Notes: a model not told the origin generated them from the letters alone. A stretch of 64,000 bases of DNA from Thermoplasmata archaeon (GCA_038852105.1 JAWCKK010000002.1:42621-106620), one strand, 5' to 3'. Numbered from the stretch's first letter, positions 15,109 through 43,510 are shown. Translations and numbers: made by a program.

Positions 15109-15297
15109 TCACCCCTTTTCGTCAGCGCGATGATCTCTGATATATGTGTCGGTTTTCGGGGTATATCGCTTTCGCCTGAAGAACAACATGCTCGGGCCGT
15201 CGGGCTCGGGTTGGGGCTTTCTGAACACGTTCCCGCAGAAAATACAGGAATCCCAGGAGCTCGGGACGTCGCGGAGACAGGAGGGGCAGGATTTCAT
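15109..15297 (-). CDS. Small zinc-ribbon protein (62 aa)
   Basis: MKSCPSCLRDVPSSWDSCIFCG gives CxxC-x10-CxxC; the stop codon overlaps the RBS of the next gene. Confidence 0.6.
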   Translation of the reverse strand: MKSCPSCLRDVPSSWDSCIFCGNVFRKPQPEPDGPSMLFFRRKRYTPKTDTYIRDHRADEKG

Positions 15298-15522
15298 GAA
15301 GAAGGTCTCGTCCGGAATTATCTTCCCACCTATCTGTCAAGCCAAATGGCCGATTCGCGGCAACCGCCTAGATTACTTAAAACGTTCTCAGGATGACGCA
15401 TTTCATCGGTTGGTGACGAATTTCTCCTGGGACATCGTTCTCAATCCTGATACATGAGAGGGTTAATTATTTATCAGCGGTATATTGTAATGACCAGCAT
15501 CGGAAAGGCGGAGGCAGATTGA

Positions 15523-17160
15523 TTGCCTGGTGCAACGAGCGGCAGACTTTGCCCTATTTGCGATTCGCCGATAGAGGCCGGAGCAAAGAAATGCTCATTC
15601 TGTGGCACCGACCTCACCATGTTTGAGGAAGAAGCGAAGAGCGCGAAAAGGCAAGAAGGTAGGCTGATTAGAGAAGAATATCAACCTGCGGCCCAAGCGC
15701 CGGCAGCGGCTCCTCCTAAGGACTCGACCCCGCGGGTCGAGCCAGTAGCCGCTCCATCGGCCGCAGAGGAAGAGGCGATTTATCAATGTCCCGCCTGTGG
15801 CAAGAACGTCAAGGAAAGCGATAATGTCTGTCCTCATTGCGGAGCGATTTTCTCTGAGGAGGCTCAGTTCGAATGCCCTGCCTGCCATACGCTCGTGAAT
15901 GCCGACGCGACTAAATGTCCTGGCTGTGGGGCGATATTTGTCGAGGAAGAGGCCGCTGCACAGGCGGCGGCTCCGGCGGCGCCAGCAGTCGAACCGAAAA
16001 AGGCGGAGCCTGCGCAACCGCCGACTCCGACTTTGCCTGCGACGGCCAAGGTCGGAGAAGACGAGGAGATGAAGAAAATAATCTCCCGGATCAAGGAAAC
16101 GAGGGAAATGGAGAAAGAGGCTCCGAAGAAGAAACCTGCCAAGAAGGGATTCGGGGGTTTGTTCAAGTCAATTCTGCCGAGGGGAGAAGCAGCGGAGAAA
16201 AAGGAAGCGCCTGCAAAAGAGGCTCCGAAGCCTCCCGAAAAGGCCCCGACGCCGGCAGAGGCTGTTTCTGCAAAGAAACCCACCGCGCCCGCAGAGCCGA
16301 CCAAGGTCGAGCCCTCGGCTGCGCCTGGGGCGGCAACCGTCGCGCAGGAGCCGGTGCAGAAAAGGCAATGGCCGACCGACCCGAGAGAGCAAGGAAAGGA
16401 GCTGGCTCGTCTCGTGGCAGAGGTCAGGGCGTTGCTCAGCATCGCAATGGAGCACTCGATAATGATTGACGAGACGAAAGCGCTCCTCGATAGGGCGATA
16501 ACTGCAGGTCGCGAGAGGCAGTTCATATTGGCTCTCGACACGATAGCCGAGGGACAGGCGAAGCTAAACAACCAATTGAGGGAATACGTCGGCGCGAACA
16601 TGGCGTCGATCACGGAAGAGATCGCCGTCGCGAAGAAGCTCGGCGGGGACACGTCGAGGGCGGAGATATTCCTGAAGGAGGCTTCCAGGGTCGCCGAGAA
16701 GGCCGATTATCAGGCGTCGCTAGTGTTCATAGACAAGGTTCGGAACGAGCTTGCTCCGGTGACCGGTCAGTACAACGAGTTGAAGAATTCCCTCCGGAAG
16801 TTCGAAAGGCTCGTCAAGGATTCCCGCGTCATCGGGATAGACAACGAGCCTCTCAAGAAGGACTACGATACCGCGAAGGCGGCTTTCGATGCGCTCGATT
16901 TCGCAAAAGCTGAGGGGATTATCAAGAAAAAGACAGCAGAGATACTCGAACAGATACCTGAGAGGATGACGAAGGAAATCGAGAAGGCGAAGCAGCTCCT
17001 CATCGAGGCGAAGATGAAGACGGACGTAGGGATGGCCCCTCAGATATCGATTCTCAAGTCCGCAATTCGGAACCTGCAGGATAAGAAATACCTCGAAGCG
17101 TTGGCGGATCTCAAGACGTTCAAGAAGGAGATGAAGAAACTGCTCAGCCAGTCGGCTTGA
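15523..17160 (+). CDS. Triple zinc-ribbon protein with Pro/Ala/Lys-rich linker and four C-terminal helical repeats
   Basis: CPIC-x10-CSFC, CPAC-x10-CPHC, CPAC-x10-CPGC; TTG start behind GGAGG; no signal peptide or TM segment. Confidence 0.85.
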   Translation: MPGATSGRLCPICDSPIEAGAKKCSFCGTDLTMFEEEAKSAKRQEGRLIREEYQPAAQAPAAAPPKDSTPRVEPVAAPSAAEEEAIYQCPACGKNVKESDNVCPHCGAIFSEEAQFECPACHTLVNADATKCPGCGAIFVEEEAAAQAAAPAAPAVEPKKAEPAQPPTPTLPATAKVGEDEEMKKIISRIKETREMEKEAPKKKPAKKGFGGLFKSILPRGEAAEKKEAPAKEAPKPPEKAPTPAEAVSAKKPTAPAEPTKVEPSAAPGAATVAQEPVQKRQWPTDPREQGKELARLVAEVRALLSIAMEHSIMIDETKALLDRAITAGRERQFILALDTIAEGQAKLNNQLREYVGANMASITEEIAVAKKLGGDTSRAEIFLKEASRVAEKADYQASLVFIDKVRNELAPVTGQYNELKNSLRKFERLVKDSRVIGIDNEPLKKDYDTAKAAFDALDFAKAEGIIKKKTAEILEQIPERMTKEIEKAKQLLIEAKMKTDVGMAPQISILKSAIRNLQDKKYLEALADLKTFKKEMKKLLSQSA

Positions 17161-19321
17161 GCACCTCGAACTCCCTCTCGAGGATTGAAATCTCCTGCGG
17201 CTTCAACGTTCCCGGGCTGACGGAAATCATCATTATCGAGTCGCTCTCGGAGAATTCGTCTATCAACCGCCGCAGGAATCTCAGCACCCCGTCGAAGCTC
17301 GTGTTGCTTATCAGGTATTGGAGCCCATCTATCAGCAATATCCCTTTCTCCCCTTGACCCAAGAACTCCTCTATCGTATGGACTATCATCTCCAGGCTCG
17401 GCGGGATCGTCCTCTCGTTCTTGCTCTCTTTGTCCGTTAGCCAGATTATCTCCCCGCTGATGCCGTAATCGCTTCTCACCTTGCCGGGGTTCATCCTCGT
17501 TATCTCCAATCCGCGGTAGCCCTCTTTTATCATCCGAGCCAAGAGCAGGTTGCTGTGCGTCGGCCGATCTTCCTCGATCAGATAGCTATGCCCGGGTTTG
17601 ACCTCCAGCTCGTGAACTCCCTCCTTCTCGGGCGCACCCAGGGTCGGCGTCAAGACCTCTTTCGCAAGTTGCAGGTCGATATCGAGCTTCATGACCGTCG
17701 CAAAGGCTATCAGCCGATTCAACGCGGCCTCCAGCTCCCGGACGTTCGATTCTATCCTGTCAGAGATGAATTCGATCACTTGAGCCGGTATTTCCCTGCC
17801 TTTCTCCTTCGCCTTCCTTTTGAGTATCTCTACCCTCGTCTGCTTGTCAGGCGGCTGGATGTCCGCTATCATCCCGCCCTGTATCTTCGCTGCCAGATGC
17901 TCCGACAGCTTGGGTATTTCCTTCGGCAGGCGGTCGCTCGCGATGACTACTTGTCCGCCGTTGCGGAGAGTGTCTTCGATGAGGTACAAAAGTTCGACCT
18001 GTGCGGCCTCCTTGCCCGCTAAGAATTGGAAGTCGTCGATCATGAACAGCTTCTTGCGTCTCAACCTGTCTCTGAGGCCGTGAACATCGTTCCTTTTGAT
18101 AGCGAGGTCTAGTTCTTCAGCGAACTTCTCCGCCGGAAGAAGCACTATGCTATCCTTCGAACTCTTGGCCATTATCTGCCTTGCAATGGCATTGAGCAGA
18201 TGGGTCTTGCCAAGACCGGACTTTCCGTACAGGAAGAGCGGGTTGTAGGCCTTATCAGGCGCATGGGCGACGGCAACAGCCGCGGCATATGCGAACTTGT
18301 TGCTCTTGCCGACGACGAAAGACTGGAATCCCATGCCCTCCGTCAGCGCGAGCAAGGAACTCTCCTCGCCCTTGCACTTTGGACAAGATCCGTCTCCGTC
18401 AAGCACGGAGCCGCACTTCTCGCATGTCGGCACTTCCTGCTTCGGTATTTCGCCCCTCTGGTATTGGAGTATCAGATCGTACAGGTCTCCCGTCTTCGCA
18501 TCCCGTTGCTTCCTTTTCAGATCCTCTTCTATCTTCTTCTCGGCTATCTTGATCTCCTCTATATGCCGCCTTATTTTCTCCTTAAGGGACACGAAATCGG
18601 CCTTTATGTTGTCTATATCCGAGGGGTCGCTCAGGCGAAGCTTCAGTGCCTGAATCTCGTTCTCGAATCCTACCTGAGGCAGGCTATCCAGCTGTTTCTC
18701 CAGCTTCTTCAGGTCATCTATTTTTTCTTTATACTCCGCGAGCGCCTTCTTCGCTCCGGCTTTGCTCTGTCTGAACAGCTTCTCCAACTCATCGACGACG
18801 TATCCCTGACGTCTCAGCTCGAGAATCTCCCCGAGGACCGGGTCTGTCTCCTCGGATGGCGGGGGTTCGATTTCCTCGGGCCTCTCCTTTTCCTTTGTCT
18901 CGGCGACGCGCCGTTCTTCTGGCTGTATGAGGCTCTTCAAATCTATGCTGTCCATCTCGAGCAATTTTGCGTCCGGGAATCTGCGATCGAACTCCTCTTT
19001 CGGGACCCTGCTGTGGAGCTCTATTACCGCCTGCCTGTCCTGAGCATCCTCCAGAATGAACCTCATCGATTTGTCGCCCGCATAGATCCTCTTTATCTCT
19101 CTGGGCTCCTTCTTCTCGAATTGGTATATCGACATCGTCGGCATGCCCTGATCGACGACCAGATATCCTGTCGAACTCATCGACTCCTTCTTCAGGATGA
19201 CCTTGACGTATCCCGTGAAAGTGTACTGTTTCAAATCCGAAAGTATGCCGGCCAGAACGCCAGGCCCGCCTCTCGCAGTCCTGACGACTATCCCCTCGGG
19301 TATTCGAAGCTCGGCAGACAA
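17144..19321 (-). CDS. Multidomain protein: DUF2226-like N-terminus, coiled coil, zinc ribbon, DnaA-type AAA+ domain and DUF835 (KaiC-like)
   Basis: FQSFVVGKSNKFAYAAA, YNPLFLYGKSGLGKTHLLNAI, MIDDFQFLAGK, ASDRLPKEI, ADIQPPDKQTRVEIL, SNVRELEAALNRL are diagnostic of DnaA domain III. The C-terminus GHSYLIEE...ITRMNP...IIWLT...LLIDGLQYLI...F..VLRFL is DUF835-like. No DnaA domain IV HTH is present. Confidence 0.9.
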   Translation of the reverse strand: MSAELRIPEGIVVRTARGGPGVLAGILSDLKQYTFTGYVKVILKKESMSSTGYLVVDQGMPTMSIYQFEKKEPREIKRIYAGDKSMRFILEDAQDRQAVIELHSRVPKEEFDRRFPDAKLLEMDSIDLKSLIQPEERRVAETKEKERPEEIEPPPSEETDPVLGEILELRRQGYVVDELEKLFRQSKAGAKKALAEYKEKIDDLKKLEKQLDSLPQVGFENEIQALKLRLSDPSDIDNIKADFVSLKEKIRRHIEEIKIAEKKIEEDLKRKQRDAKTGDLYDLILQYQRGEIPKQEVPTCEKCGSVLDGDGSCPKCKGEESSLLALTEGMGFQSFVVGKSNKFAYAAAVAVAHAPDKAYNPLFLYGKSGLGKTHLLNAIARQIMAKSSKDSIVLLPAEKFAEELDLAIKRNDVHGLRDRLRRKKLFMIDDFQFLAGKEAAQVELLYLIEDTLRNGGQVVIASDRLPKEIPKLSEHLAAKIQGGMIADIQPPDKQTRVEILKRKAKEKGREIPAQVIEFISDRIESNVRELEAALNRLIAFATVMKLDIDLQLAKEVLTPTLGAPEKEGVHELEVKPGHSYLIEEDRPTHSNLLLARMIKEGYRGLEITRMNPGKVRSDYGISGEIIWLTDKESKNERTIPPSLEMIVHTIEEFLGQGEKGILLIDGLQYLISNTSFDGVLRFLRRLIDEFSESDSIMMISVSPGTLKPQEISILEREFEVLKPTG

Positions 19322-19560: not shown

Positions 19561-19609
19561 TTCAATTCATCGCTACAGAAATCCGTTTTCCCGGTCGAAA
19601 TCTGCAGAA

Positions 19610-20313: not shown

Positions 20314-21603
20314 TCACTTTCTCGTATTTTTATCCTGCTTTAGTGCCTCTTCGGACAATCGCATGGCGCAATATTCTCCGCACATTGTGCAGACCGTCGA
20401 ATCGGCCGAATCGAACCTGTTTCTTATCTCGGTCGCCTTCGTCTTGTCTATGCACAGGTCGAGCATCTGCTGCCAATCGAGAGCCTTTCTCGCGGCGGAC
20501 ATCCTGGCGTCCCAATCGGAGTCTATCCCCCTTGCGAGGTCAGCCGCGTGAGCCGCGATCTTCCCGGATATGACGCCTTCGCGGACATCGTCGACCGTGG
20601 GCAGCGAGAGGTGTTCGGAAGGGGTGACGCAGCAAAGGAAATCCGCACCGTAATATGCCGCGAGCGCACCACCAATAGCGCTCGTGATATGGTCGTAGCC
20701 AGGGGCGATGTCTGTCACGAGCGGCCCGAGGACGTAGAACGGCGCGCCGTCGCATATCGTCTTTTCCAGCCGGACGTTCGCCTCGATCTGGTTCAACGGG
20801 ACATGGCCAGGGCCTTCGACAATCGTCTGCACGCCCGCCTCTCTCGCCCTCCTGACGAGCTTGCCAAGTACCGCGAGCTCCGCGAGTTGGGCGGGATCCG
20901 TGGCGTCCGCGGTGCACCCGGGTCTGAGCCCGTCCCCGAGGCTCAAGGTGAGCTCGTATCTCCCGGCGAGTTCGAGAAGGTAATCGTAGCTCTCGAAGAG
21001 GGGGTTCTCATTTCCGGTATGCGCCATCCATCTGAGCAGTATAGCTCCGCCGCGGGACACTACATCGGTGATTCTCGGATGCTCTGCAAGCACCTGCGCG
21101 GTTTTCTTCGTCACGCCGCAATGCACGGTGATGAAATCGACTCCCTGCTTCGCGTGCTCTTCTATGACGGAAAAGATGTCGTCCTCCGTCATGTTGAGGA
21201 TACCGCCCCTTCCCCCCATCCTGCAGGCGACTTCGTATATCGGCACGGTGCCGAGCGGGATGCGCACCATCTTCAGAAGCATCGCCCGGATTGCCTTGAG
21301 GTCGCCACCGGTGCTCAGATCCATAATGGTGTCCGCGCCGTACTTAATCGCCACCTTCGCCTTCTCGAGCTCGAGGTCTCGGTCGATCATATCGGGCGAA
21401 GTCCCTATATTGGCATTTATCTTGACGCTGATCCCTTCGCCTATCGGCGCAGGCCTCGATATCGAATGCGCCGGGTTATGCGGCAGCACCGCTCTCCCTG
21501 CGGCTATCGCCCGCCGCAGCTTGTCGGGATCCATCCCCTCCCATTTGGCCGCACACTCTATCTCGGGCGTTATGCGAGATTCGGCCTCGCAGATAAGGCT
21601 CAT
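20314..21603 (-). CDS. thiC: Phosphomethylpyrimidine synthase ThiC
   Basis: KINANIGTS, TIMDLSTGG, GTVPIYE, SRGGA, SLGDGLRPG, EGPGHVP, YVLGPL, TPSEHL and the radical-SAM-type CTMCGEYC motif; AGGTG RBS before ATG 21603. Confidence 0.95.
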   Translation of the reverse strand: MSLICEAESRITPEIECAAKWEGMDPDKLRRAIAAGRAVLPHNPAHSISRPAPIGEGISVKINANIGTSPDMIDRDLELEKAKVAIKYGADTIMDLSTGGDLKAIRAMLLKMVRIPLGTVPIYEVACRMGGRGGILNMTEDDIFSVIEEHAKQGVDFITVHCGVTKKTAQVLAEHPRITDVVSRGGAILLRWMAHTGNENPLFESYDYLLELAGRYELTLSLGDGLRPGCTADATDPAQLAELAVLGKLVRRAREAGVQTIVEGPGHVPLNQIEANVRLEKTICDGAPFYVLGPLVTDIAPGYDHITSAIGGALAAYYGADFLCCVTPSEHLSLPTVDDVREGVISGKIAAHAADLARGIDSDWDARMSAARKALDWQQMLDLCIDKTKATEIRNRFDSADSTVCTMCGEYCAMRLSEEALKQDKNTRK

Positions 21604-21699
21604 TAGATACACCTATCGGGGTATTCGATATGTATATTTTCATGGTCCTCGAATGTGCTGTCGGAATCTGGCATCAATTGCCTTCGACAGGGAGGCTAA

Positions 21700-23799
<2,100 letters not shown>

Positions 23800-23809: not shown

Positions 23810-26368
<2,559 letters not shown>

Positions 26369-26498
26369 CCGCGTATTCTCAAAGCATCTGGCAACTCTTT
26401 ATTGATTTCGATAACGAACCAAAAACCTTTATTAGTGATTAGGTGTCTTGAACACGATAAGCGCGCCGACCAGTCCGCTTGACTGGAGGCCTGACCAA

Positions 26499-27218
26499 AT
26501 GTTCAAAGACTCCATCCCAGGCTTGGAAAAAGTGTTCAAGATTGACATCGAGCGCCCCAAGGTCATTCTCGTAACGGGGCCGCCGGGATCCATGAAGACG
26601 AGTTTCTGCTACACGCTGATGTCGAAGTACCTCGAGAAGAGGAACGAGTTCGGATTGTACTGCACGCTCGAGGAGACCGTCGACAGCCATCTGAAGAACA
26701 TGGAGAGCCTCGGCGTGAGGCTCACGACGAAGATGCAGATATCTGACCTGACCGACCTCAGGGAGATAGACGAGCTCGACGAGGTCATGGGGAAGAAGGA
26801 CGAGATCGACTATCTCCTGTTCATAGAGCGCATGATCCAGAAGTTCAAGGAGGAGCAGGGGGACAAGTTCTCGATATTCGTCCTCGACTCGCTCGGGGCA
26901 CTGTACTCGCTCATGGAGGACGTCGAGAACATGCGCAAGAAGATGTTCTACTTCTTCAAGATGCTCAGGGACAGCAATTTATTCTCGTTCGTCATAATGG
27001 AGAGATCGCTGTCGGGCGAATCGCAGCTGCTCGGGAACGAGGGGTTCCTGGCGGACGGCATCATGATGCTCGGGCTGGACAGACAGAGGGGCACGCTGAC
27101 TAGGTATCTGCAGGTGGAGAAGATGCGGGCCTCGGAGCACAGCATGGAAAGGCACGCGCTGGAGGTCGGCAAGGGAGGAATAACCGTTCTTGGACCGCTG
27201 CTCAGCGGCGGAGAATGA
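26499..27218 (+). CDS. KaiC/RAD55-like RecA-fold ATPase
   Basis: IPGLEKVF, Walker A variant GPPGSMKT, YCTLEE, Walker B VLDSL, ADGIMML, LQVEKMR. Start placed at ATG 26499 (GGAGG RBS; BRE-TATA-like AAAAACCTTTATTA at 26421-26434); TTG 26448 is an alternative. Confidence 0.85.
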   Translation: MFKDSIPGLEKVFKIDIERPKVILVTGPPGSMKTSFCYTLMSKYLEKRNEFGLYCTLEETVDSHLKNMESLGVRLTTKMQISDLTDLREIDELDEVMGKKDEIDYLLFIERMIQKFKEEQGDKFSIFVLDSLGALYSLMEDVENMRKKMFYFFKMLRDSNLFSFVIMERSLSGESQLLGNEGFLADGIMMLGLDRQRGTLTRYLQVEKMRASEHSMERHALEVGKGGITVLGPLLSGGE

Positions 27219-33188: not shown

Positions 33189-35003
33189 TCACTTCGACGC
33201 CGATGGTTGAGTCTCTATCCTGATGCTCTTGAGCGGCGGAGCAGGCGGCGGCGTCGGGCTTTCCGGCAGCTTCTCCGTCGCCGCCATCTTTGCCCGGATC
33301 TCCTCCATCAGCTTGTCTGGGTACTTGTAGTACGCCGATACCACCCTGGCGACCTCGCGGTAATTGACGTTCCCCATCTTCTTCAGGTACTCCAGGACCT
33401 CGACCCTGCGGCGTATCTCCCGTTCCATCTCCCTCGGGGTCCAGTTGCGCGCCATGCGTATCTTCTCGTAGACGTAGCTATGGCCGCTGTAGTTGAACGT
33501 GTCGTCCGCGGGGTTCCAGGTGAACACGGAGTTCGTGATGAGCTCGTTTGTCTCGGGGTCTATCCCGACTATTTCGGTCAAGCCCTTGACCCGCCTTGTC
33601 ATCTTCGTTCCGACCTTCACCTGCGCCTGCAATAACACAATATTGAGTGCCGTCACCAGTGCTCTCGGGAGATTGATCGGGTCGTTCTCCATCCTGTGCA
33701 CCATCGACTGAACATCTTCTGCATGGAAGGTAGAGTACGCGGTCTTCCCAGTGGCCATCGCCTGAAACACGACGTACGCTTCCTTGCCTCTTACCTCACC
33801 GACCATCAGATACTGTGGCCGCTGCCTCATCGCAGTGGTCAGAAGATCGAACATGTCTATCTCGCCGGGCGCCTTGCCGGTTATCGGGCTCTTGCCGCCG
33901 AATCCCTCTCTCGTCAGCGAGGGGATCCAGTTCTCGTGCGGCAGGTTGAGCTCGCGCGTGTCCTCGATGCTCACGATTTTCATCTGAGGAGGTATGAAAA
34001 GGAGAACCGCGTTGAGAGTGGTCGTCTTTCCGGACGCAGTGCCTCCGCAGACGAGCATCGATTGGCCGTGCTCGATTGCCGCCCAGAGGTATGCCATCAT
34101 GTCCGTGCTCATCGTCTTGAATCTCAAAAGGTCCAAGGGCGTGAACGGGTTTTCCTTGAACCGTCTCACCGTGAACGAGGACCCCTTCTTCGTGACGTGC
34201 TTCCCGAGCGTCGCCTGAAGCCTCGAGCCGTCGGGGATCGTGGCGTCGAGCATCGGCTTTGCAACGGATATGTGCTTGCCGCACTTCTGTGCCAGCCATA
34301 CGACGAATGCGTCAAGGTCCTCTTCTCTGTCGAACATCAGGTTGGATCGTATCGAGCCGTATTTCCTATGATATATGTAGAACGGTATCTTGCATCCGTC
34401 GCACGACAGGTCTTCCACGTTCGGATCGGTCATCATGATATCGATTTTCCCGTATCCGATGAAATCCCTTATGAGGTAGTACATGACGCGCTCCTTCGAT
34501 GTCGGGTGAAGGTCGATCCCCACTTCCTTCATGATCTGTCCGACCTTGGCTCTCAGGTACTTCTCTTTGTCTTCCGTTGACTCCCATTCTATCGTCTCGA
34601 TGCTGGCGATAAGGAGGCGCTTGAGGAGGTCCAAGACCTCGGATTCGTCCTTCGAAATCTTCGGCTCGATGACCTCGTACAGATACTCGTTGGCTATGTT
34701 GTCGTACTTGATCCTCACGTAAGAATAGCCCTCCTTGATGGTGACTATCTCCACCTCGTCCACCTTCGGATCGATTATCGGGGGTATCTCCGTCACCTTC
34801 GCGGTGGAGCCCATATCCAGATTCTTCGGGAGGGCGATCTTCATGGGCTTGTGCTTGAACTTCAGGAGGAATGATATGTAGCCCGCCATCAGCCTCGATT
34901 TCGCATCTATTTTCTCGGTCGGAGCCGGGGCTACGGGTTGGGTCTCGGTAACCGTCTCTTCGACCGCCGATGTCTGTTCCATGGTAGTTGCTTCTTCTGT
35001 CAT
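33189..35003 (-). CDS. Type IV pilus / type II-IV secretion ATPase (VirB11/FlaI-like), paralog 2
   Basis: EDLSCDG, LDATIPDGSRLQ, SFTVRRF, Walker A GGTASGKTT, SIEDTREL, RQRPQYLMVGEVRG, TFHA. Confidence 0.93.
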   Translation of the reverse strand: MTEEATTMEQTSAVEETVTETQPVAPAPTEKIDAKSRLMAGYISFLLKFKHKPMKIALPKNLDMGSTAKVTEIPPIIDPKVDEVEIVTIKEGYSYVRIKYDNIANEYLYEVIEPKISKDESEVLDLLKRLLIASIETIEWESTEDKEKYLRAKVGQIMKEVGIDLHPTSKERVMYYLIRDFIGYGKIDIMMTDPNVEDLSCDGCKIPFYIYHRKYGSIRSNLMFDREEDLDAFVVWLAQKCGKHISVAKPMLDATIPDGSRLQATLGKHVTKKGSSFTVRRFKENPFTPLDLLRFKTMSTDMMAYLWAAIEHGQSMLVCGGTASGKTTTLNAVLLFIPPQMKIVSIEDTRELNLPHENWIPSLTREGFGGKSPITGKAPGEIDMFDLLTTAMRQRPQYLMVGEVRGKEAYVVFQAMATGKTAYSTFHAEDVQSMVHRMENDPINLPRALVTALNIVLLQAQVKVGTKMTRRVKGLTEIVGIDPETNELITNSVFTWNPADDTFNYSGHSYVYEKIRMARNWTPREMEREIRRRVEVLEYLKKMGNVNYREVARVVSAYYKYPDKLMEEIRAKMAATEKLPESPTPPPAPPLKSIRIETQPSASK

Positions 35004-35014
35004 TCACTTTCACC

Positions 35015-35938
35015 TCAGGCGAACAGTAGCCTCAATATGAAGAAGGCGGCGAGCAGCATTATGAACGAATGCCTCAAGCCGATTGCCACGCTGCCTCTCT
35101 GAAGCACTCCGGCCATGACGCCGTCTCCCACAGCGTGCGCAAGCGTGGCGAGCAGGAACGCGAATTCCACCGACGGTATGACTGACACATCGATGCCCGA
35201 CATCGACCCCATCTGCGACGAGCCGATTTTCTCCGTCGCCTCCTGCAACTGCGAGCCTGCCAGCTGCATCTGAGGCAAGAAAGAAGCGGTCAAGATGACT
35301 ATCGTCGCGATGAACACGAAGAACGAGATGTAGATGACGGCGACGTACGTGCTCATCACGATCGCCTTCTCGGTCTCGGTGAGTATCGTCTCCCTGGCAT
35401 CGTGCGCCACCATCGTAAGGACGTCCGCGACATTCCCGCCCGCATCGCTCGCCTTCATGATAATCGATGTCATCCGCTGCACGAGAGGGGTCTTGACTCT
35501 CTCAGCGAATAGCCTGAGCGCCTCGTTCGCCGGGACTCCCCATTCTATCTGCGCGGCCATCTTCTTTATCTCCGGCGTGAGCGCCCCGTACCGCCCCGAA
35601 GACGCGACGACTATCGCCTCTGCGAGAGTCATGCCGAACCTTCCCGCTTCGGCCACATCTCTAAGGAAATCCGGTAGCCTGTTCTCGATCTGCTTAATCC
35701 TCTTCCATCTGGCAGACATGTAGAACCCGTAAGGTCCGACGAAGACCAACATGCCGATGATTATCCAGTCTATCCAGTCGAAGGGCAGATCCATGAATTT
35801 CATGTAGTCGAGCAGTGCCAGCAGTATGGTGAACACGAAAACGCCGAATGAAATACCGAGTATCTGCTTCGATCTATCGACCTTTTCCGATCCCGGTATT
35901 ATCAGCGCACCGCCTTTCTGCGCCTTTGTTTTCGGCAT
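35015..35938 (-). CDS. Type II secretion system F / TadC-like platform membrane protein
   Basis: LPDFLRDVAE..GMTL.EAI...YGAL..EI...I.WG...EAL..F; GG....VL; TM helices; G...G...GLRH motif. Confidence 0.9.
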   Translation of the reverse strand: MPKTKAQKGGALIIPGSEKVDRSKQILGISFGVFVFTILLALLDYMKFMDLPFDWIDWIIIGMLVFVGPYGFYMSARWKRIKQIENRLPDFLRDVAEAGRFGMTLAEAIVVASSGRYGALTPEIKKMAAQIEWGVPANEALRLFAERVKTPLVQRMTSIIMKASDAGGNVADVLTMVAHDARETILTETEKAIVMSTYVAVIYISFFVFIATIVILTASFLPQMQLAGSQLQEATEKIGSSQMGSMSGIDVSVIPSVEFAFLLATLAHAVGDGVMAGVLQRGSVAIGLRHSFIMLLAAFFILRLLFA

Positions 35939-36970
35939 CTAGACGGCACTCTCCTTTTCGCTGTTCCAGATGAGGAATATGAACCCGAACTGTGCGAGAG
36001 GAATCATTAGCAGGACGACGAGGTAGAGTATCATCATCGTGCCGCTGGCGTTCCCTCCCACGATTGCCATGATGGCGAGTATGACCACAAGGAAAAGCGG
36101 GAAGGCTACGACGACGGTCACGAACGACTCGGCGAGAAGCCCCAAGGTTTCCATTCTAGACTTCATCTCGAGCTTGGCGTCCTTCTCGTATTCCTCGGCC
36201 TTTATCAGGAAGTACGGCTTCAGCTGGCCTCCGGAGGTCGACGTGGTTATTACCCCCTGAAGGAAGTCCTGGAACTTCTTCGACGGGGTCCTCTGCGTGG
36301 CCTTCTTGATGGCTGTAAGGATGTCGATTCCCAGAAGCTCGGTGTCCCTCGTGATCCACTCCGCCTCCTCCTTGATACCTCCGTATATCGGCTGTCTCGC
36401 GAGCTCCTTGAATATGACGTCGATGTTCACATCGGCGGAGGCCATCGCCGAGATGAAGCTCATCGCCGAGGGCAGTCGTTTCTCGATGTCCCTCGAGATT
36501 CTCTTCGCCGTGGAAGCCGGCTTTCCTTTCTGGACCGCGTAGACCATGACAGGCGGGAAGACGGCTATCAGGACAGCGACGATTATCTGCAGGATGAGAT
36601 TGACCTTGAGCATCATTCCGAGCAGGACGAATCCGACGACAATGCCCGCGACTATACTGCCCATCGCCGTCAGAAGGGTCGACATCATGACGACCGCCAT
36701 GAACTCCTCCGGGCGCAACCTCATGTGAGCCTTTGTGAGGTTCTCCTCGAGGACGGCATCCTGCTTGCCCTTCGCGGTGATGCTCTTCCCGAAAACTCTC
36801 CAGGCCAGCTGCTCAAAGGGCTTCAATGCGATGTATTCGGGAGCGGCTCCTGCCGGGAGCTTTATGACGTGAGGAATCGCCTTTTCCTTCGCCTCTTCGG
36901 GCGTCTGAGTCTTGATGTAAAGCTTCTTCCTCGAATCCAACTTTTTGAACAGATCGGCTTCATCGGGCAT
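35939..36970 (-). CDS. Type II secretion system F / TadB-like platform membrane protein
   Basis: L.KAHMRLRPEEF, IEKRLP.A.SFISAMAS, YGGIKEEA..I.RD..LLG.D, TPS..F..FL.G, E.L..LAE.FV; TM helices. Confidence 0.9.
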   Translation of the reverse strand: MPDEADLFKKLDSRKKLYIKTQTPEEAKEKAIPHVIKLPAGAAPEYIALKPFEQLAWRVFGKSITAKGKQDAVLEENLTKAHMRLRPEEFMAVVMMSTLLTAMGSIVAGIVVGFVLLGMMLKVNLILQIIVAVLIAVFPPVMVYAVQKGKPASTAKRISRDIEKRLPSAMSFISAMASADVNIDVIFKELARQPIYGGIKEEAEWITRDTELLGIDILTAIKKATQRTPSKKFQDFLQGVITTSTSGGQLKPYFLIKAEEYEKDAKLEMKSRMETLGLLAESFVTVVVAFPLFLVVILAIMAIVGGNASGTMMILYLVVLLMIPLAQFGFIFLIWNSEKESAV

Positions 36971-38731
36971 TTACGTCGCCACCTGCTGTCCGCTCGCTGC
37001 CGCGGACTCGATCCCCATCGCCGCCAGTTCGGTCCTCACAATCGCCGCGGTCGCCTGAGGATCCCTGTAATACGACCTTATCAGCTTCCATATGTCGCGG
37101 TGGTCCTCGAGGTTCTTCGCGACCATGAACTTGATCACATCGACCCGCCTGTGGAACTCGTCCATCATGGCCTCGTGCGTCATATTCTTCATTTCCATTA
37201 TCTTGTCGAACAGGAAGCTGTGACCCTTAAAGATGAACTGGTCCTTGCCCTGGTCCCATTCGTAGACCGTGTTCGTGATGAGCTCGTTGGTCTCCGGTTC
37301 GAATCCGACGATCTCGATCAGCTGCCGTATCCGTCTTACCATGTCCATTCCGACTCTCGCGTGGATCTGGATTATCACGTTCCGCAGGGCCGTGAGAAGA
37401 ATTCTCGGGCAGTTGATCGGAGGATTCTCGAGCCTGTTAACCATGCCTTTTACGGAATCCGCGTGCATCGTCGAATACGTGGTGTGCCCAGTGGCCATTG
37501 CCTGGAACATCGTGTAGGTTTCTTTACCTCTGACTTCACCGACGATGATGTAGTTGGGCCGCTGTCGCAGCGCCGCCCTGACGAGATCATACATGTCGAT
37601 TTCCCCGGCCGCCTTCCCGTCTGCTCCTCTCTCGCCTACACCGGACCTCGTCGCGCCAGGTATCCAGTTCTCATGCGGCAAATTGATCTCACGGGTGTCC
37701 TCCATCGTGACTATCTTCGCGGTGGGCGGAATGAATAGCGAAATCGCGTTCAAGGTCGCGGTCTTTCCAGACGCGGTCCCGCCGGCGATTATTGCCGACT
37801 CGCCGTGCTCGACGGCCAGCCACATGTATGCGACCATCTCTTCGCTCGCGGTCTTGTGCTTTATGAGATCGACCGGCGTGAACGGTTTCTCCTTGAACCG
37901 CCTGATGGTGAATGTAGACCCTCTGGTCGTTACCTCCTTGGAATAGGTCGCCTGGACACGGTGGCCCTCGGGGGCCGTACCGTCGAGTATCGGGTTGGAG
38001 ACCGATATCTGCTTGCCGCATCTCTGGGACAGTCCGACGACGAACGAGTTCAGGCTTTCTTCGTCATTGAATATGAGGTTCGTCTTCAGGCTCTCGAATT
38101 TCGCGTGATAGACGAACAGCGGGATGTTTACGCCGTCGCAGGAAATATCTTCTATGTAGGTGTCGTTCATGAGCGCGTCAATGGGACCGTAGCCGATGAA
38201 GTCCCTGATGATGTAATACAGCACTTTCTCCTTGGATATCTTATCCAGCTTGATGTTTCTCGTCCTCAGGAACGACTCGACGCTCTTCTCCAGATATGAT
38301 TGCTTGTCGACGGTGGTCAGCTTGTCCCACTCGTACGACAGCGTCTTGTCCAGGGAGTCTTTGAGAGTCTTCAGAAGCTTCTCTTCCTTCGGGCTCAGCT
38401 GAGGCTCGATGACCTCCAGCAGGTATTCGTTCGTCGTCGTGTTCAATACGACCCTCACGAAGCTGAAGGGGCTCTTGACCGCGTAGAAGCCCACCTGCTG
38501 CAGGGCAGGGTCGGTGATCTTCGGCACCTTGGTGTATTCCGAGCCTTCCTCCGAGTATTCGCCGATCGGCCCCTTTGGTGGCATCTTCTTCGGGAGCTGG
38601 GTCTTCTTGATCTTCATCATGAATCTCAAGTATCGCGCCATGGCTCTTGTCCCGAATCCGACTTCCTTTTTCTCCTTCCCTTTCTTCTTCTCTTCCAAGG
38701 GCTCTACTGACGGGGCTACGGCTTCTGTCAT
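36971..38731 (-). CDS. Type IV pilus / type II-IV secretion ATPase (VirB11/FlaI-like), paralog 1
   Basis: IEDISCDG, LDGTAPEGHRVQ, TFTIRRF, Walker A GGTASGKTA, TMEDTREI, RQRPNYIIVGEVRG, TMHADS; GAGGTGA RBS. Confidence 0.93.
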   Translation of the reverse strand: MTEAVAPSVEPLEEKKKGKEKKEVGFGTRAMARYLRFMMKIKKTQLPKKMPPKGPIGEYSEEGSEYTKVPKITDPALQQVGFYAVKSPFSFVRVVLNTTTNEYLLEVIEPQLSPKEEKLLKTLKDSLDKTLSYEWDKLTTVDKQSYLEKSVESFLRTRNIKLDKISKEKVLYYIIRDFIGYGPIDALMNDTYIEDISCDGVNIPLFVYHAKFESLKTNLIFNDEESLNSFVVGLSQRCGKQISVSNPILDGTAPEGHRVQATYSKEVTTRGSTFTIRRFKEKPFTPVDLIKHKTASEEMVAYMWLAVEHGESAIIAGGTASGKTATLNAISLFIPPTAKIVTMEDTREINLPHENWIPGATRSGVGERGADGKAAGEIDMYDLVRAALRQRPNYIIVGEVRGKETYTMFQAMATGHTTYSTMHADSVKGMVNRLENPPINCPRILLTALRNVIIQIHARVGMDMVRRIRQLIEIVGFEPETNELITNTVYEWDQGKDQFIFKGHSFLFDKIMEMKNMTHEAMMDEFHRRVDVIKFMVAKNLEDHRDIWKLIRSYYRDPQATAAIVRTELAAMGIESAAASGQQVAT

Positions 38732-38739
38732 CTTTCACC

Positions 38740-39729
38740 TCAAACGCTTATCTCCGCCATCGTCATCGAAACTATCGCCTTCGTGTATTCCAGGGAGGTT
38801 ATCCCGTTTAGCGAGACGACAATTCTGTAATATGTTTGACCATCCGCCGTAAAAGAGGTTTTCGTTATACTCCAATCGGATTCTGAAATGCCCGCGGTAT
38901 TCGTGCTCCGCATATCCTTGAAGTATTTCTCCCAGGCGTTTCCGTACTTTGTGATCATAATAAACGATAACGTCGATCCGTCAGACTTGAGGAATTTTCC
39001 GTAATTGGCGTACTCGAGGACCGATGTCACGCTCTTCGTGCCGAATCCTCCGAGGGACTTGTTGATGCCTGTCAGCGATACCTGCGTGACCTTGACCATC
39101 AGATCCCCTCCGGATTTCACGACTCTTATCGACATCCCGCTGAGCACGATTTCTCCGTTCGTCTGGTTGAGAATTATCGCGCCGTTCTCGTAAGCCACGG
39201 TCTGCTTCACATAGAATCGGTTCATGCCGTCGAATTCGAGGCTCCCGCCGGTTTTCCCTCCGTTCGAGGCGTTGAGCTCATAATTTAGAGCACTTCCGAC
39301 GGTGTAATTGAACCTGATGGTGAACGACGGGTACCCGTAGGCGGAGTCGGTCGAGAGGGCCAGGAGACCGACGGTGGGGCTAGCAAAGACCGGTATGCCG
39401 TCGGCATGGAGCTTGAAAGGCGTGTATATCGGGGCGCTCGATACCTCCCCGCTCTCCATCGCTGTCAGTATCTGCAGGTCGATCCCTGCCTTGAGCATGC
39501 TGAATTGAGAGATCACGGTGTTCATGTGAGAGCTTTCGTTATCCTCCATCCAAATCGGCACGTATTGGTTGGTGAACATGCCGAGTCCGGTCAGGAAGAC
39601 CATCAGGGAAAGGATGGTTCCGACCGTCGCGGCGACGCCCTCGTCGTCCCAACTCTTCTTGCGCTTTATCTTGAATAAAAAGGACTTTTCGTAGACTGTC
39701 CTATCTGCCCGATTTGCGCGCTTCGACAA
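38740..39729 (-). CDS. Pilin-like protein with a class III signal peptide (large minor pilin)
   Basis: KRKKSWDDEG|VAATVGTILSLMVFL, followed by YVP.W...E..H...V...F; first gene of the pilus operon; TTG start behind GGTGGTGA. Confidence 0.75.
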   Translation of the reverse strand: MSKRANRADRTVYEKSFLFKIKRKKSWDDEGVAATVGTILSLMVFLTGLGMFTNQYVPIWMEDNESSHMNTVISQFSMLKAGIDLQILTAMESGEVSSAPIYTPFKLHADGIPVFASPTVGLLALSTDSAYGYPSFTIRFNYTVGSALNYELNASNGGKTGGSLEFDGMNRFYVKQTVAYENGAIILNQTNGEIVLSGMSIRVVKSGGDLMVKVTQVSLTGINKSLGGFGTKSVTSVLEYANYGKFLKSDGSTLSFIMITKYGNAWEKYFKDMRSTNTAGISESDWSITKTSFTADGQTYYRIVVSLNGITSLEYTKAIVSMTMAEISV

Positions 39730-40007: not shown

Positions 40008-40088
40008 CTTCTTACAGTCTCTTAAGGTCTTCAGCATCATTTCTAGATGATTATGCTAAGAATGGAAGGGGTTTGAAACTCGGGAAGC

Positions 40089-40749: not shown

Positions 40750-41187
40750 ATGCAGATCAAAGGTTTCGATGTAAGTTCGGTGGATGCGAAGCGGTTCACC
40801 AAACCTGGCGAAAAGGTGCAGAATCTCAGGATAGACAATAACAGCACGGTGACATCCATCACTCTGATGGGAGAATCCCAGGCGACAGTGGAATTCAGGT
40901 TCACGGCGAATTATGCAGGCGTGGGCATCATACGTCTCGAAGGCAGATTGCTGCTCGAGGGAGAGGCGAAGCAGCTCTACGAAATGTGGTCGAAGACGAA
41001 CAATATGCCTCCGGAAGTTGCGAACCTTGTGCACGGCGCGGTCATAACCAACTGTATGCCGATAGCCGTGGTGGTCTCTAAGGACATCGGCCTGCCTCCG
41101 CCTCTCCCGCCGATTCAGCCGTTGCAGGCGCCTCAGAAAAGGCCGGATGCGAAGGATTCGAGACGCAATTCTCCCGAGATAATCTGA
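40750..41187 (+). CDS. Conserved hypothetical protein, possibly SecB-like fold
   Basis: Alternating beta strands (VEFRFTANY, IIRLEGRLLL), then a helix (NLVHGAVITNC...VVSKDIG) and a poly-Pro LPPPLPP motif reminiscent of the SecB C-terminus. Confidence 0.55.
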   Translation: MQIKGFDVSSVDAKRFTKPGEKVQNLRIDNNSTVTSITLMGESQATVEFRFTANYAGVGIIRLEGRLLLEGEAKQLYEMWSKTNNMPPEVANLVHGAVITNCMPIAVVVSKDIGLPPPLPPIQPLQAPQKRPDAKDSRRNSPEII

Positions 41188-41227
41188 GAAGCGAGTATTC
41201 TGAGATTTTCTTCCGGTTCCGTCCGGT

Positions 41228-43510
41228 TCATCTTATATGATCGAGGGCGAATGAGCCGATGTTGACGCCGCTCTTCGATGAGGTGTATCTTATCCAGGCT
41301 CTCGATTGCACGTCTCCGATGCCCTTCACGGACAGGAACGTGTTCAGGTTTTCGACCTTGAACTCTATCATGCCGTCCATCAACGAACCCACCATCTGTA
41401 TCTCTTGTTCGCCGTGCATCCCCTTCTCGATAAGATACATGCTGACCGCCTTGTCCCGCTTTCTCCTGCCTGCTATCGGGTTCAGGAACCTAAAGGCGGT
41501 CGCGGGGTCTAGATAGGCTATCATGGTGGAAACGGATCTGAAGACGAACCTGTAGTACTTGTGCTTCTTCATCAGCTCCTTCGCGACAGCTTCGATGGCG
41601 TTCTGTATTCCTTGGAAATCGGTCGGTGACTCGATGTAGGTCACGTTGGGGTCGTTGGCCTGGTCTCCCATGCTCCGCGAGTACGAATCGATGAATCTCA
41701 CGAGCCCGAGCTTCTCGTACTCCTCGAACCCGCTTATGACGAAGTTCATCTCCTCCCTGATTTCCGACGGGGTCTTCTCGGTCGTGACCCAGATCACGGG
41801 CACGCCTTTGGAGATTCCCTCGGCGACGAAGCAGTCCACGAGGACCTCCTTGCCCATGAACGGCGGGCCGTATATCAGGACATTGGACCCGAACGGCAGG
41901 CCGCCCATCAGCAGATCGTCCAATCTCGCCGTGCCGGTCTTGACCTTCTCGATCTTGAACTCTAATGCCCTTTCCTCCTCCCTCTTCTCGATCTCCTTGC
42001 CGATGACTCCCTGCTCCCTCAGCTTCAGCTCCTCTTCCTTCGCCCTGATGAACTTCTCCTTCGCCTTGATTTCCTCTTCCTTTCTCGTGATTTCCGCCTG
42101 GAGCTGTTCAAGCCTCTTCTTGAGCTCGATCTCAGTTTGCGAACCCATCTCGGCCTTCTGCTGCTGGAGTCTCTTGATCTCCTCCTCGAGCAGCTTCTCC
42201 CTGTGCAAGAGGTCCTCTTCCCTTCGGAGCAGTTCGTCCTCCTTATATCTCATCGGCTCCTTCAGGGCGTTCATCTCGTCCTCTTTGGCCTGCAGCTTGT
42301 CCCTTAGCATGATCACTTCTTCGTTCCTGAGGGCGAGCTCGCGCTCAAGGCGTTGCATGTCCGCGAGCCGTTGCTTCAGAGCCTCGGTCAGCCCAGCTCC
42401 GCCAGATTTCTGCATCAATAGCTGGAGCTCGTCGTTCTTCTGTTTCAAGGAAAGCTCCAATTCCTTGTTCCTGAGGGTCAACCGCTCGACATCGCTTTTC
42501 AGGCTCGCTTCGCGCTTCTCGAATTCCGATATCCTGTCCTGCAGCTCCGCCGTGAACCTTTCTCTCATCTCGGTCCTCGTATCGGTCTCCTCGCAGGCCA
42601 GCTCTTTTTCCTTCTTTTCCAGGAACTTCTTCATCTCCTCCAGTGCGAGCTCCTTCTCTTCCAGCTCGACCTGCATCCTCTTCAGTTCCTGTTCGTCGGC
42701 GGGCAGGGTAAGCAGTCCCTTCTCGACCTTGTCCTTGTATATCTCCAGCGAGGATTTCAGTTGGAGATTCTCAATCTCGAGCTGCTCCCTCGCGGCCATC
42801 TCCTTGGAGAGCCTGTCCGCAATCTCTCCGGCCTCGATGTTCTCACTGCCATAGACAGATTTGAAATACTTCGCAATCGCCGTCGAGCTCTTTCTTACGC
42901 TTTCCAATTCCTCTTTCAGCCTACTGTTCTCGGACTTCAGCATCTCTACCGTAGACAATATCTCGTTCATCCTGTTGGCAACGATGTCTATCGGTAACTT
43001 TCCGGCCTTGAAATCATCGACGAGTGCCCTGAGATTCTCCTTCGCCTTCTCGAGCTCCTCGCGTTCTATCTCCGACGGGATCAATACCTCCTCGCCGGGG
43101 ATCGCTTCCGCTCCCGGTTCCGCCGTCAGCCAGGAAGCGATATCTACCACTTTTCCTTTCAGCCAATCTTCGATGACTCTCGAACTGTCGTCTGTTTCGT
43201 CCTGCGCTTCGGAACTCACCTCGGCGCCGGCAGTCGACTCCCTGCTCCAGGTAAAGTCCTTCGACTCCCCCATAAGCCATTTCGCAATGTCCTCTTGATC
43301 GTCATATTTTGCTTTCTCCCCGAGGAGCTCCTGAGCGATCGTCTCCGCCTTTTCGTCAGCGTCCATAGGTTGGCCTGCTTCTGCCTTCTCTCGAGCGCAG
43401 TGAGGGCATTCCTCCTTATCGGAGGAATATTTCTTCCCGCACTCCTTGCAGGTGACCATCTTCTTTTTCGCCGGGGGAGACAAGTCAGAATCACCATACT
43501 TCGAATTCAC
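41228..43510 (-). CDS. Zinc ribbon + acidic region + long coiled coil + C-terminal degenerate KaiC/RAD55-like ATPase domain
   Basis: CKEC-x10-CPHC; about 330 aa of heptads; KTGTARLDDLLMGGLP, Walker A variant GPPFMGKE, FIDSYS, MDGMIEF, SFALDHIR. Confidence 0.88.
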   Translation of the reverse strand: MNSKYGDSDLSPPAKKKMVTCKECGKKYSSDKEECPHCAREKAEAGQPMDADEKAETIAQELLGEKAKYDDQEDIAKWLMGESKDFTWSRESTAGAEVSSEAQDETDDSSRVIEDWLKGKVVDIASWLTAEPGAEAIPGEEVLIPSEIEREELEKAKENLRALVDDFKAGKLPIDIVANRMNEILSTVEMLKSENSRLKEELESVRKSSTAIAKYFKSVYGSENIEAGEIADRLSKEMAAREQLEIENLQLKSSLEIYKDKVEKGLLTLPADEQELKRMQVELEEKELALEEMKKFLEKKEKELACEETDTRTEMRERFTAELQDRISEFEKREASLKSDVERLTLRNKELELSLKQKNDELQLLMQKSGGAGLTEALKQRLADMQRLERELALRNEEVIMLRDKLQAKEDEMNALKEPMRYKEDELLRREEDLLHREKLLEEEIKRLQQQKAEMGSQTEIELKKRLEQLQAEITRKEEEIKAKEKFIRAKEEELKLREQGVIGKEIEKREEERALEFKIEKVKTGTARLDDLLMGGLPFGSNVLIYGPPFMGKEVLVDCFVAEGISKGVPVIWVTTEKTPSEIREEMNFVISGFEEYEKLGLVRFIDSYSRSMGDQANDPNVTYIESPTDFQGIQNAIEAVAKELMKKHKYYRFVFRSVSTMIAYLDPATAFRFLNPIAGRRKRDKAVSMYLIEKGMHGEQEIQMVGSLMDGMIEFKVENLNTFLSVKGIGDVQSRAWIRYTSSKSGVNIGSFALDHIR

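Follow-up and report, generated by a model that had tools for sequence, protein, structure and literature searches.

We analysed a 64,000-nucleotide stretch of a Thermoplasmata archaeon genome (GCA_038852105.1, JAWCKK010000002.1:42621-106620), referred to here as the window, in which a set of proteins carrying a two-knuckle zinc ribbon lies around a type IV pilus operon. The genome comprises 1.53 Mb in 28 contigs and its closest named relatives are metagenome-assembled genomes (MAGs) of Thermoplasmata archaea. Translated open reading frames (ORFs) were scanned with a regular expression, non-overlapping matches were counted, and coordinates are those of the window. The scan returned ten copies of CxxC-x10-CxxC in five proteins and one CxxC-x9-CxxC in a DnaA-like protein, reproducing exactly the eleven copies, and their coordinates, that a first-pass annotation of the same DNA had listed. 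All 11 copies place four cysteines in two CxxC knuckles, with a spacer inside the range of 9-12 residues (ten residues in ten copies, nine in the other), and additional overlapping matches at amino acids (aa) 103 and 1334 are tandem ribbons read out of register. Pfam searches bore out the identities given earlier to the carriers and their neighbours, namely KaiC-like ATPase domains, a Bac_DnaA and DUF835 fusion, a CARDB surface protein, coiled-coil proteins, gyrB and gyrA, and a pilus operon.

Ribbon carriers and the pilus operon

The giant surface protein encoded at 28489-33042 (plus strand, 1517 aa) scores 106 bits against CARDB and also matches DZR and Zn_Ribbon_1. A signal or transmembrane (TM) segment at aa 14-32 is followed by the ectodomain and by a TM helix at aa 1291-1309, and the three ribbons (aa 1320, 1348 and 1444) all lie C-terminal to that helix. 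The first two form a DZR pair (nucleotides (nt) 32446-32499 and 32530-32583), a helical WW..P..F..W insert separates them from the third (nt 32818-32871), and the protein ends in a basic KKVVKKP tail. Across five families (alignment A1), the cytoplasmic tail has a mean column identity of 53%, with all 12 cysteines and the helical motif WW..P...F..W invariant, and the ectodomain, at 24-33% identity, is far less conserved. An AlphaFold2 model of the tail consists of the TM helix, two ribbons, a three-helix segment (predicted local distance difference test, pLDDT, ~90), the third ribbon and a disordered lysine-rich end; in Foldseek searches its single ribbons resemble RanBP2/NZF fingers, ribosomal zinc ribbons and the zinc finger of ArnA. 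In public data the tail family comprises at least 433 clusters at E<=1e-5, all combining CARDB with DZR, which come from Thermoplasmata, Methanomassiliicoccales and Thermoplasmatota MAGs. The clusters are labelled 'hypothetical', 'CARDB domain-containing' or, wrongly, 'ribosomal protein L40E', and JGI labels (P0018, P0035, P0050 and others) include 'subtilase family serine protease/ribosomal protein L40E'. The JGI L40E names look like a misannotation driven by the ribbon.

Upstream on the same strand lie the genes for a KaiC-like ATPase and for ccZR2. The ATPase (26448-27218, plus strand) is a single-domain protein without ribbons that scores 112.6 bits against Pfam KaiC (PF06745, cut-off 26.6), and it is the best conserved member of the set, with 50-79% identity across families. 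Its Walker A motif reads GPPGSMKT, with methionine at the expected second glycine of GxxxxGK[ST]. Scores against the NCBIfam equivalogs stay below cut-off both for KaiC (PRK09302, 83.5 against 408) and for ArlH (21.5 against 215), and the proteins are best described as KaiC-like, being by these scores neither KaiC nor ArlH. The adjacent ccZR2 (27242-28384, plus strand) combines a coiled coil of ~230 aa and acidic linkers with two ribbons at aa 269 and 321 (nt 28046-28099 and 28202-28255; Zn_ribbon_3 53 bits, DZR 43 bits) and ends in a basic KKV-KK tail. Among the six orthologues above the score threshold (alignment A2), from which the ribbon count of this family was taken, the invariant columns are almost only the eight cysteines and an S..A..CY.CG signature; compared with sister-family orthologues, the ribbon part retains 40-57% identity and the coiled coil about 29-34%.

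A second pair of carriers is formed by two convergent genes. ZR3cc (15523-17160, plus strand; Zn_ribbon_3 57 bits, DZR 43 bits) has three ribbons at aa 10, 89 and 118 (nt 15550-15603, 15787-15840 and 15874-15927), followed by a P/A/K-rich linker and C-terminal helical repeats. Nine orthologues from seven families (alignment A3) have exactly three ribbons with all 12 cysteines invariant, and ribbon number and position are likewise fixed in the CARDB-tail family (three) and the ccZR2 family (two). A profile of ZR3cc orthologues found weak ribbon-level matches alone among PDB sequences (best E 0.0037, to rubrerythrin), the helical repeats remaining unmatched. Within the linker, an amphipathic stretch at 16141-16176, KKGFGGLFKSIL, has a near twin, KKGLFGGLGKMFS, in a ribbon-linker-ribbon protein at G000 C4:8266-9240; its KG[LF] motif is partly kept in orthologues (alignment A3), and the stretch may be a membrane-targeting helix.

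The partner of ZR3cc (17144-19321, minus strand) is a fusion of a DnaA-type AAA+ ATPase (Bac_DnaA, 165 bits) with DUF835 (97 bits), a domain classed as inactivated KaiC (iKaiC; PMC5847659). Its x9 ribbon (aa 300, nt 18374-18424) lies directly N-terminal to the AAA+ domain. Pfam detects the Bac_DnaA ATPase and a weak Hda_lid and does not find domain IV, in whose place DUF835 stands, and the score of 274 against TIGR00362 is below the cut-off of 344 for the bacterial DnaA initiator. Among orthologues the ribbon is kept in families f1, f2, f3 and f7, has a spacer of eight residues in f6, and is lost in f13 (genome G060) and f19 (G067). Another pairing of ribbons with iKaiC lies outside the window, at G000 contig C4:58850-65545, where the gene for a 456-aa protein (C4:64175-65545, minus strand), which combines two ribbons with a coiled coil and a Pro-rich linker, lies 40 bp upstream of that for a 1,761-aa DUF835 protein (C4:58850-64135, minus strand).

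Convergent with the CARDB gene is the type IV pilus operon (33189-39729, minus strand), which is Tad/archaeal clade-2-like and holds two T2SSE and two T2SSF genes. It encodes a pilin-like protein (38740-39729), a pilus ATPase (36971-38731, T2SSE), a TadC-like protein (35939-36970, T2SSF), a TadB-like protein (35015-35938, T2SSF) and a second pilus ATPase (33189-35003, T2SSE), all on the minus strand. Secretion ATPase, TadC/FlaJ-like protein and pilin, the constituents of an archaeal type IV pilus locus, are thus all present, the pilin-like gene by a weak DUF7289 match only, and the best NCBIfam match of the operon is to a FlaI-type ATPase, under cut-off.

On the far side of the operon lies ZRccKaiC (41228-43510, minus strand), with a single ribbon at aa 21 (nt 43397-43450), a WL-repeat region, a coiled coil of ~350 aa and a C-terminal KaiC-like domain (KaiC 68.2 bits, DUF7504 48 bits) that brings the KaiC-family domains of the cluster from three to four. 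Its Walker A motif is GPPFMGKE, in which glutamate replaces Ser/Thr. The N-terminal ribbon is kept in nine sister-family or same-genus orthologues; orthologues from the sister family (L007, L009 and L035) carry an HHH_5 segment after the ribbon, which the window protein does not have. The divergent partner of ZRccKaiC is a 145-aa conserved hypothetical ORF (40750-41187, plus strand) with no Pfam or NCBIfam match. An orthologue lies beside the ZRccKaiC orthologue in five genomes (G006, G009, G018, G031 and G063), and an ORF of equal size occupies its position in L034 and L035. No carrier is named by NCBIfam above cut-off, and Pfam finds no FHA or vWA domain in any gene of the cluster.

The sixth carrier is a 62-aa micro-protein (15109-15297, minus strand) with a single ribbon, CPSC-x10-CIFC, at aa 4 (nt 15235-15288). 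Orthologues with 42-56% identity occupy the same position in two MAGs of the same family (L023 and L024), and no equivalent small ribbon ORF was found next to ZR3cc in eight loci from other families. The protein is lineage-specific, and its membership in any wider system is doubtful. Its ORF overlaps the stop region of an adenosine-kinase gene by 4 nt. Elsewhere in the window, the ORF at 362-823 (plus strand) starts with a typical archaeal type IV pilin signal (…EAVSPVIATILMVAITVVLAAVLY) and lies directly downstream of two further KaiC-like genes (C2:40154-42215), another association of pilin and KaiC on the same contig.

Conservation of the neighbourhood

Within the order, orthologues of ZR3cc, the DnaA-like gene, ccZR2, the CARDB gene and ZRccKaiC have the same order and spacing in a sister family, and a tblastn map shows gene-for-gene identity from Lhr to ZRccKaiC in G006, G009 and G018, including ThiC, gyrB and gyrA. 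Markers outside the region are also collinear there, namely an MCM-like gene at 2416-4542 (11 kb upstream) and a helicase gene at 58095-60848 (15 kb downstream). Since collinearity with the sister family extends over all 64 kb of the window, and equally to the markers beyond the region, we rejected order-level synteny as support for a functional grouping.

We therefore give weight to the class level, for which 16 genomes from 15 other genera were sampled. Orthologues of the DnaA-like/DUF835 protein and of the KaiC-like ATPase are both present in the same 11 genomes and both absent from the same five. ccZR2 was found in 10 of these 11, and wherever both were detected (10/10 genomes) the KaiC-like gene lies directly upstream of ccZR2. 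ZR3cc, detected at E<=1e-15 in eight genomes, is convergent with the DnaA-like gene and abuts its 3' end in seven (G071, G056, G035, G060, G067, G031 and G039), the exception being G070, where it lies on another contig; in G074 the same adjacency is seen via a weaker tblastn match. In five families (G035, G067, G060, G031 and G074) the two pairs are joined in a contiguous block of ~5.5 kb, in which the KaiC-like gene and ccZR2 run in one direction, ZR3cc diverges from them and the DnaA-like gene converges on ZR3cc. For G035 the contiguity was established from translated ORFs, for the other four from ORF maps combined with tblastn, and the block contains neither gyrase nor ThiC.

The linkage to the pilus operon extends across families as well. 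In G067, G060 and G074 a CARDB protein of 1,640-2,040 aa is encoded downstream of ccZR2 and is convergent with a TadC/TadB/ATPase operon, as in the window. The complete string of pilus operon, CARDB-tail gene, ccZR2 and KaiC-like gene occurs in these three genomes, in G063, G006, G009 and G018, and in three named public assemblies that were located through the CARDB-tail family. Four further families beyond the window's own order thus have a pilus operon and a CARDB ribbon-tail protein beside ccZR2, and the pilus operon adjoins the CARDB gene in f1, f2, f6, f13, f19 and f21. Two of the public assemblies, GCA_014361295.1 and JGI 3300014656, carry the full series ThiC-gyrB-gyrA-KaiC-(ccZR2)-CARDB/DZR-pilus operon-145-aa ORF-coiled-coil KaiC. 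The third, GCA_041320395.1, matches through the CARDB gene, after which the pilus operon is truncated and rearranged and neither the 145-aa ORF nor the coiled-coil KaiC protein follows. At this locus (L036, 14683-21598) the pilus operon has shrunk to a truncated ATPase, and a ThiC fragment, Yip1, the DnaA-like/DUF835 gene and ZR3cc come after the CARDB gene; the arrangement reflects either a rearrangement or deletion, or an assembly artefact.

Synteny, which the first-pass annotation had proposed as a check on a shared network, is therefore informative in part: the two pairs, the four-gene block and the linkage of pilus operon and CARDB gene are kept across families, and collinearity within the order tells nothing. 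The interleaving with gyrase that it noted is incidental. ThiC (20314-21612, minus strand), gyrB (21808-23799, plus strand) and gyrA (23810-26368, plus strand) are not part of the system and are absent from the cluster in five other families. Family f6 (G063 and G070) has the window's arrangement, with gyrB and gyrA between the two pairs. A DnaA-AAA+ gene near ThiC-gyrB-gyrA is found in three families (f1, f2 and f6; L031, L033 and L035), which recalls the dnaA…gyrB order of bacterial origin regions, and in five other families the DnaA-AAA+ gene is not beside gyrase. In GCA_014361295.1 (L034, 3393-7235) GyrA is 1,280 aa long and contains an intein, with Intein_splicing and Hint_2 between two DNA_topoisoIV halves.

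The zinc ribbon and its spread through the genome

Pfam knows the motif under the names Zn_ribbon_3 (PF13248), Zn_Ribbon_1 (PF13240) and DZR (PF12773). ZR3cc (57 bits against a gathering cut-off of 27), ccZR2 (53 against 27) and the CARDB protein (35.6 against 25) score above the cut-off; the 62-aa ORF reaches 23.5 bits against UPF0547, under the cut-off of 29, and the ribbons of ZRccKaiC and the DnaA-like protein receive no Pfam call, being too divergent. As judged from sequence, all eleven motifs are genuine copies of a generic two-knuckle zinc ribbon of RanBP2-like fold, and the invariance of the cysteines in orthologues is consistent with the predicted binding of one Zn2+ per ribbon.

In addition, we examined the distribution of the motif in a crude gene set of the genome (1,397 genes, 455,593 aa, 1.3% Cys). 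The set holds 44 non-overlapping x10 motifs, compared to a mean of 0.19 (maximum 2) in 200 within-protein shuffles, so the motif is far beyond a chance pattern. A hidden Markov model (HMM) built from the ten local copies detects 34 domains in 20 genes, and the 44 matches of the regular expression belong to 29 genes; the copies are spread over more than 15 contigs. Carriers outside the region, to which Pfam assigns the same zinc-ribbon families, include an SPFH/Band-7 protein, several multi-pass membrane proteins, and proteins combining ribbons with coiled coils or with low-complexity sequence. The ribbons are typically placed at termini or beside TM segments, and tandem pairs occur. The module is thus already known at the domain level, and this lineage puts it on dozens of unrelated proteins; a ribbon found on 20-29 genes, SPFH and many membrane proteins among them, is not the special shared module that had been supposed. 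The downstream linker CG(A/V)xF, also noted earlier as a shared feature, is present in 3/10 local copies (4/10 with a loose reading that admits the CGNVF of the 62-aa ORF), and ribbons elsewhere in the genome have it just as often.

The genome-wide count did reveal local enrichment. Five carrier genes lie within 28.5 kb, and a scan-statistic permutation over the whole gene set gave P=0.003 for HMM carriers and P=0.02 for regular-expression carriers; this is a genuine enrichment of modest size, in a region picked after the fact. Most local ribbons have their nearest neighbours outside the region. The exception concerns the two ribbons of ccZR2 and the third ribbon of the adjacent CARDB protein, which are reciprocal best matches (45% identity over 33 aa) and have the pattern CGT[ML][IN]S..A.[VI]C[YH].CG in common across families.

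Proposed roles and comparison with known systems

On balance, we consider it probable that the window holds a neighbourhood conserved across the class around a two-ATPase type IV pilus operon, and that this neighbourhood represents a regulatory or scaffolding apparatus marked by the ribbons. Ribbons would then be concentrated here because five carriers and the ribbon-less KaiC-like ATPase belong to one class-conserved pilus neighbourhood. Its predicted core comprises the giant CARDB surface protein, in which a highly conserved cytoplasmic segment of double ribbon, helical bundle, third ribbon and basic tail follows the single C-terminal TM helix; a putative operon of the single-domain KaiC-like ATPase and ccZR2; and the convergent pair of ZR3cc and the DnaA-AAA+/iKaiC fusion. 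ZRccKaiC is a looser associate with a weaker link to this core, and gyrase and ThiC are bystanders inserted in the window's order.

In such an apparatus, the KaiC-type ATPases would be switches that respond to nucleotide or phosphorylation state, and the ribbon proteins with coiled coils or helical repeats would line the cytoplasmic side of the membrane as scaffolds or adaptors. Short docking elements, formed by the ribbons and by the lysine-rich ends that ccZR2 and the CARDB protein have beyond their last ribbon, would fasten this layer to the surface protein's tail, to the pilus motor, or to both, and the outcome would be control over pilus or adhesin assembly. Docking by ribbons is plausible by analogy with the ArnA zinc finger that binds ArnB, and the conserved gene pairs, together with the pilus and CARDB genes beside them, make a link of KaiC-type nucleotide switches to the surface or the pilus apparatus plausible.

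Several observations weigh against this reading. The conservation of the neighbourhood is partly genomic inertia, as seen in the 64-kb collinearity, and ThiC, which is surely unrelated, keeps its place beside the DnaA-like gene in f13 as well. In G056 and G071 the two pairs are widely separated (630 kb, or on different contigs). In G035, ccZR2 adjoins the gene for another giant protein, pilin-like and ribbon-free (2,473 aa), and in G031 no gene for a giant protein stands beside it. In other families ZRccKaiC, which was found in 50 of the 61 class genomes surveyed, is usually encoded away from the cluster. Local ribbons of different proteins are no closer to one another than to outside ribbons (permutation on BLOSUM similarity at non-Cys positions, P=0.17). 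Outside the locus, 2 of 15 ribbon carriers lie near one of the 21 KaiC-family genes of the genome against ~1 expected (P ~0.26). The AlphaFold2 model of the CARDB tail has a predicted template-modelling score (pTM) of 0.34, its local confidence being good, and a Foldseek search with it against the PDB gave no match at E<=0.001.

Pure genomic inertia is a serious rival, because the unrelated ThiC and gyrase genes are also conserved in the block. Taken to its end, it would make the ribbons independent structural staples on proteins with no common function, co-located by inherited gene order in small, slowly rearranging genomes. Collinearity of the whole window across the order, the retention of ThiC, gyrB and gyrA in the same block, the adjacency of ThiC and the DnaA-like gene in f13, the promiscuity of the ribbon and a local enrichment of merely P 0.003-0.02 in a region chosen after viewing all fit such an account. 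However, each of the two gene pairs has stayed together through rearrangements in which all else moved, an inversion among them, and whether or not gyrase lies in between; the DnaA-like and KaiC-like genes share an identical pattern of presence and absence in 16 genomes; and the CARDB-tail and ccZR2 ribbon sequences are conserved well above the other domains of their proteins. We consequently regard the absence of any common function as unlikely.

The first-pass annotation had gone further in the opposite direction, treating the eleven ribbons as one dedicated docking module and the six carriers as a single network, whose ribbons would bind each other or a common hub and so wire the KaiC, DnaA-like and pilus ATPases to the surface. 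Part of this survives: the carriers are concentrated non-randomly, their neighbourhood is conserved at class level, with conserved pairs and pilus and CARDB neighbours across families, the ribbons of ccZR2 find their best match in CARDB ribbon 3 and the reverse, and ArnA-ArnB offers a precedent for docking through CxxC-x10-CxxC. The remainder does not, as the ribbon is generic and occurs on 15-24 other genes in unrelated contexts, two families have lost the DnaA-like ribbon, only one family has the 62-aa ribbon protein, and ZRccKaiC is mostly unlinked. A local ribbon subfamily was rejected on the permutation result (P=0.17) and on nearest neighbours that lie mostly outside the region, and the proposal that ribbons track KaiC/iKaiC genes genome-wide was rejected on the result outside the locus (P ~0.26); without association there, the ribbon is not a general 'KaiC connector'. 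A single ribbon-based network of all six carriers therefore seems to us quite improbable.

Very unlikely, finally, is a chromosome-membrane tethering or segregation device in place of a pilus regulator, with ribbons and basic KKVVKKP-like tails binding nucleic acid: the DnaA AAA+ domain, the HHH_5 segment in ZRccKaiC orthologues, a long coiled coil and a membrane anchor as possible device parts, the Lys-rich tails after the last ribbon of ccZR2 and CARDB, the resemblance of single ribbons to ribosome- or RNA-associated archaeal zinc ribbons as well as to protein-binding ones, and the gyrase, SSB-like, MCM and Lhr genes in the same window would all suit it, but in five families the cluster is without its DNA-metabolism neighbours, Pfam detects the ATPase and lid domains of DnaA and no DnaA-box-binding domain IV, the window's own ZRccKaiC has no HHH_5 segment, and the constant neighbours are the pilus operon and the surface protein.

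Returning to the conserved pilus neighbourhood as the favoured reading, a more specific version of it would be an undescribed, class-wide 'inside-out' coupling that runs from the three-ribbon CARDB tail through ribbon adaptors to a KaiC-like and DnaA-AAA+/iKaiC switch and on to the two-ATPase pilus motor, so that surface adhesion or pilus activity would be gated by nucleotide state, or the reverse. We offer this version tentatively and regard it as rather unlikely. In the searchable literature, excluding Makarova et al. 2017, with which overlap is possible, we found no CARDB protein with a three-ribbon tail, no operon of KaiC and ccZR2, and no pairing of a DnaA-AAA+/DUF835 fusion with a triple-ribbon protein, nor did any paper combine DUF835, DnaA and archaea.

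Taken together, the ribbon itself is ordinary; what is striking is the set of genes around it, which adjoin a pilus operon in uncultured Thermoplasmata and include the ribbon-tailed CARDB family, the invariably adjacent KaiC-like and ccZR2 genes and the unusual DnaA-AAA+/iKaiC fusion. KaiC-like ATPases have reportedly been proposed as archaeal signalling hubs by Makarova et al. in 2017; if the proteins described here act together, they would provide a concrete, testable case of this, and would illustrate a route of communication between a surface protein and the cytoplasm in archaea. At minimum, the analysis corrects the annotation and guards against reading too much into the number of ribbons, as though they formed a dedicated network.

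At the domain level, the window motif does not differ from the Pfam zinc ribbons, with the same CxxC-x10-CxxC two-knuckle pattern. The closest mechanistic comparison is with the regulation of the Sulfolobus archaellum, in which the N-terminal RanBP2-type finger of ArnA (C21, C24, C35 and C38, a CxxC-x10-CxxC pattern) alone suffices to bind ArnB (PMC12852372). In the ArnA-ArnB module (PDB 8s05) a ribbon of this type docks proteins in the regulation of a machine related to type IV pili, as it would in the reading favoured here, and chain 8s05_C, the ArnA chain and one of the closest single-ribbon matches to the tail model, superposes on one ribbon of the tail model over 25 columns with a root-mean-square deviation of 1.2 A and a template-modelling score (TM-target) of 0.73, without overall significance. 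The window cluster differs in having no FHA domain, no vWA partner and no Ser/Thr kinase context, and the resemblance is best seen as a mechanistic analogy, not as homology of the systems.

The archaellum invites a second comparison. ArlH (FlaH), a single-domain KaiC-like ATPase, makes up the cytoplasmic scaffold of the archaellum motor together with ArlX or ArlCDE. The window likewise has a KaiC-like gene next to a coiled-coil scaffold gene, beside a FlaI-type ATPase. In contrast to that system, the ArlH score of the window is 21.5 against 215, the coiled-coil partner has no TM anchor but bears ribbons and a basic tail, and the machine is a pilus with two ATPases. HP0958 (FlgZ), a coiled-coil hairpin with a zinc ribbon that is needed for flagellum formation in Helicobacter pylori, has been cited as an analogue of archaeal pilus-linked coiled-coil proteins (PMC4858521). 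It shares with ccZR2 a coiled coil followed by a C-terminal ribbon and the link to a surface filament, and differs in that no sequence similarity is detected and that in ccZR2 the ribbons number two and the coiled coil is far longer.

The nearest match in gene content is to archaeal type IV pilus loci at large, where KaiC-family ATPases, S-layer-like or adhesin proteins, zinc-ribbon proteins and coiled-coil proteins recur and have been proposed as regulators (Makarova, Koonin and Albers 2016, PMC4858521). The main text of that census does not contain the word 'Thermoplasma', and it reports two ATPases within one pilus locus for Aciduliprofundum, probably a member of this class. The window fits the same scheme, with a two-ATPase, two-TadC operon flanked by a KaiC-like ATPase, a large surface protein, cytoplasmic zinc-ribbon and coiled-coil proteins, and DUF835.

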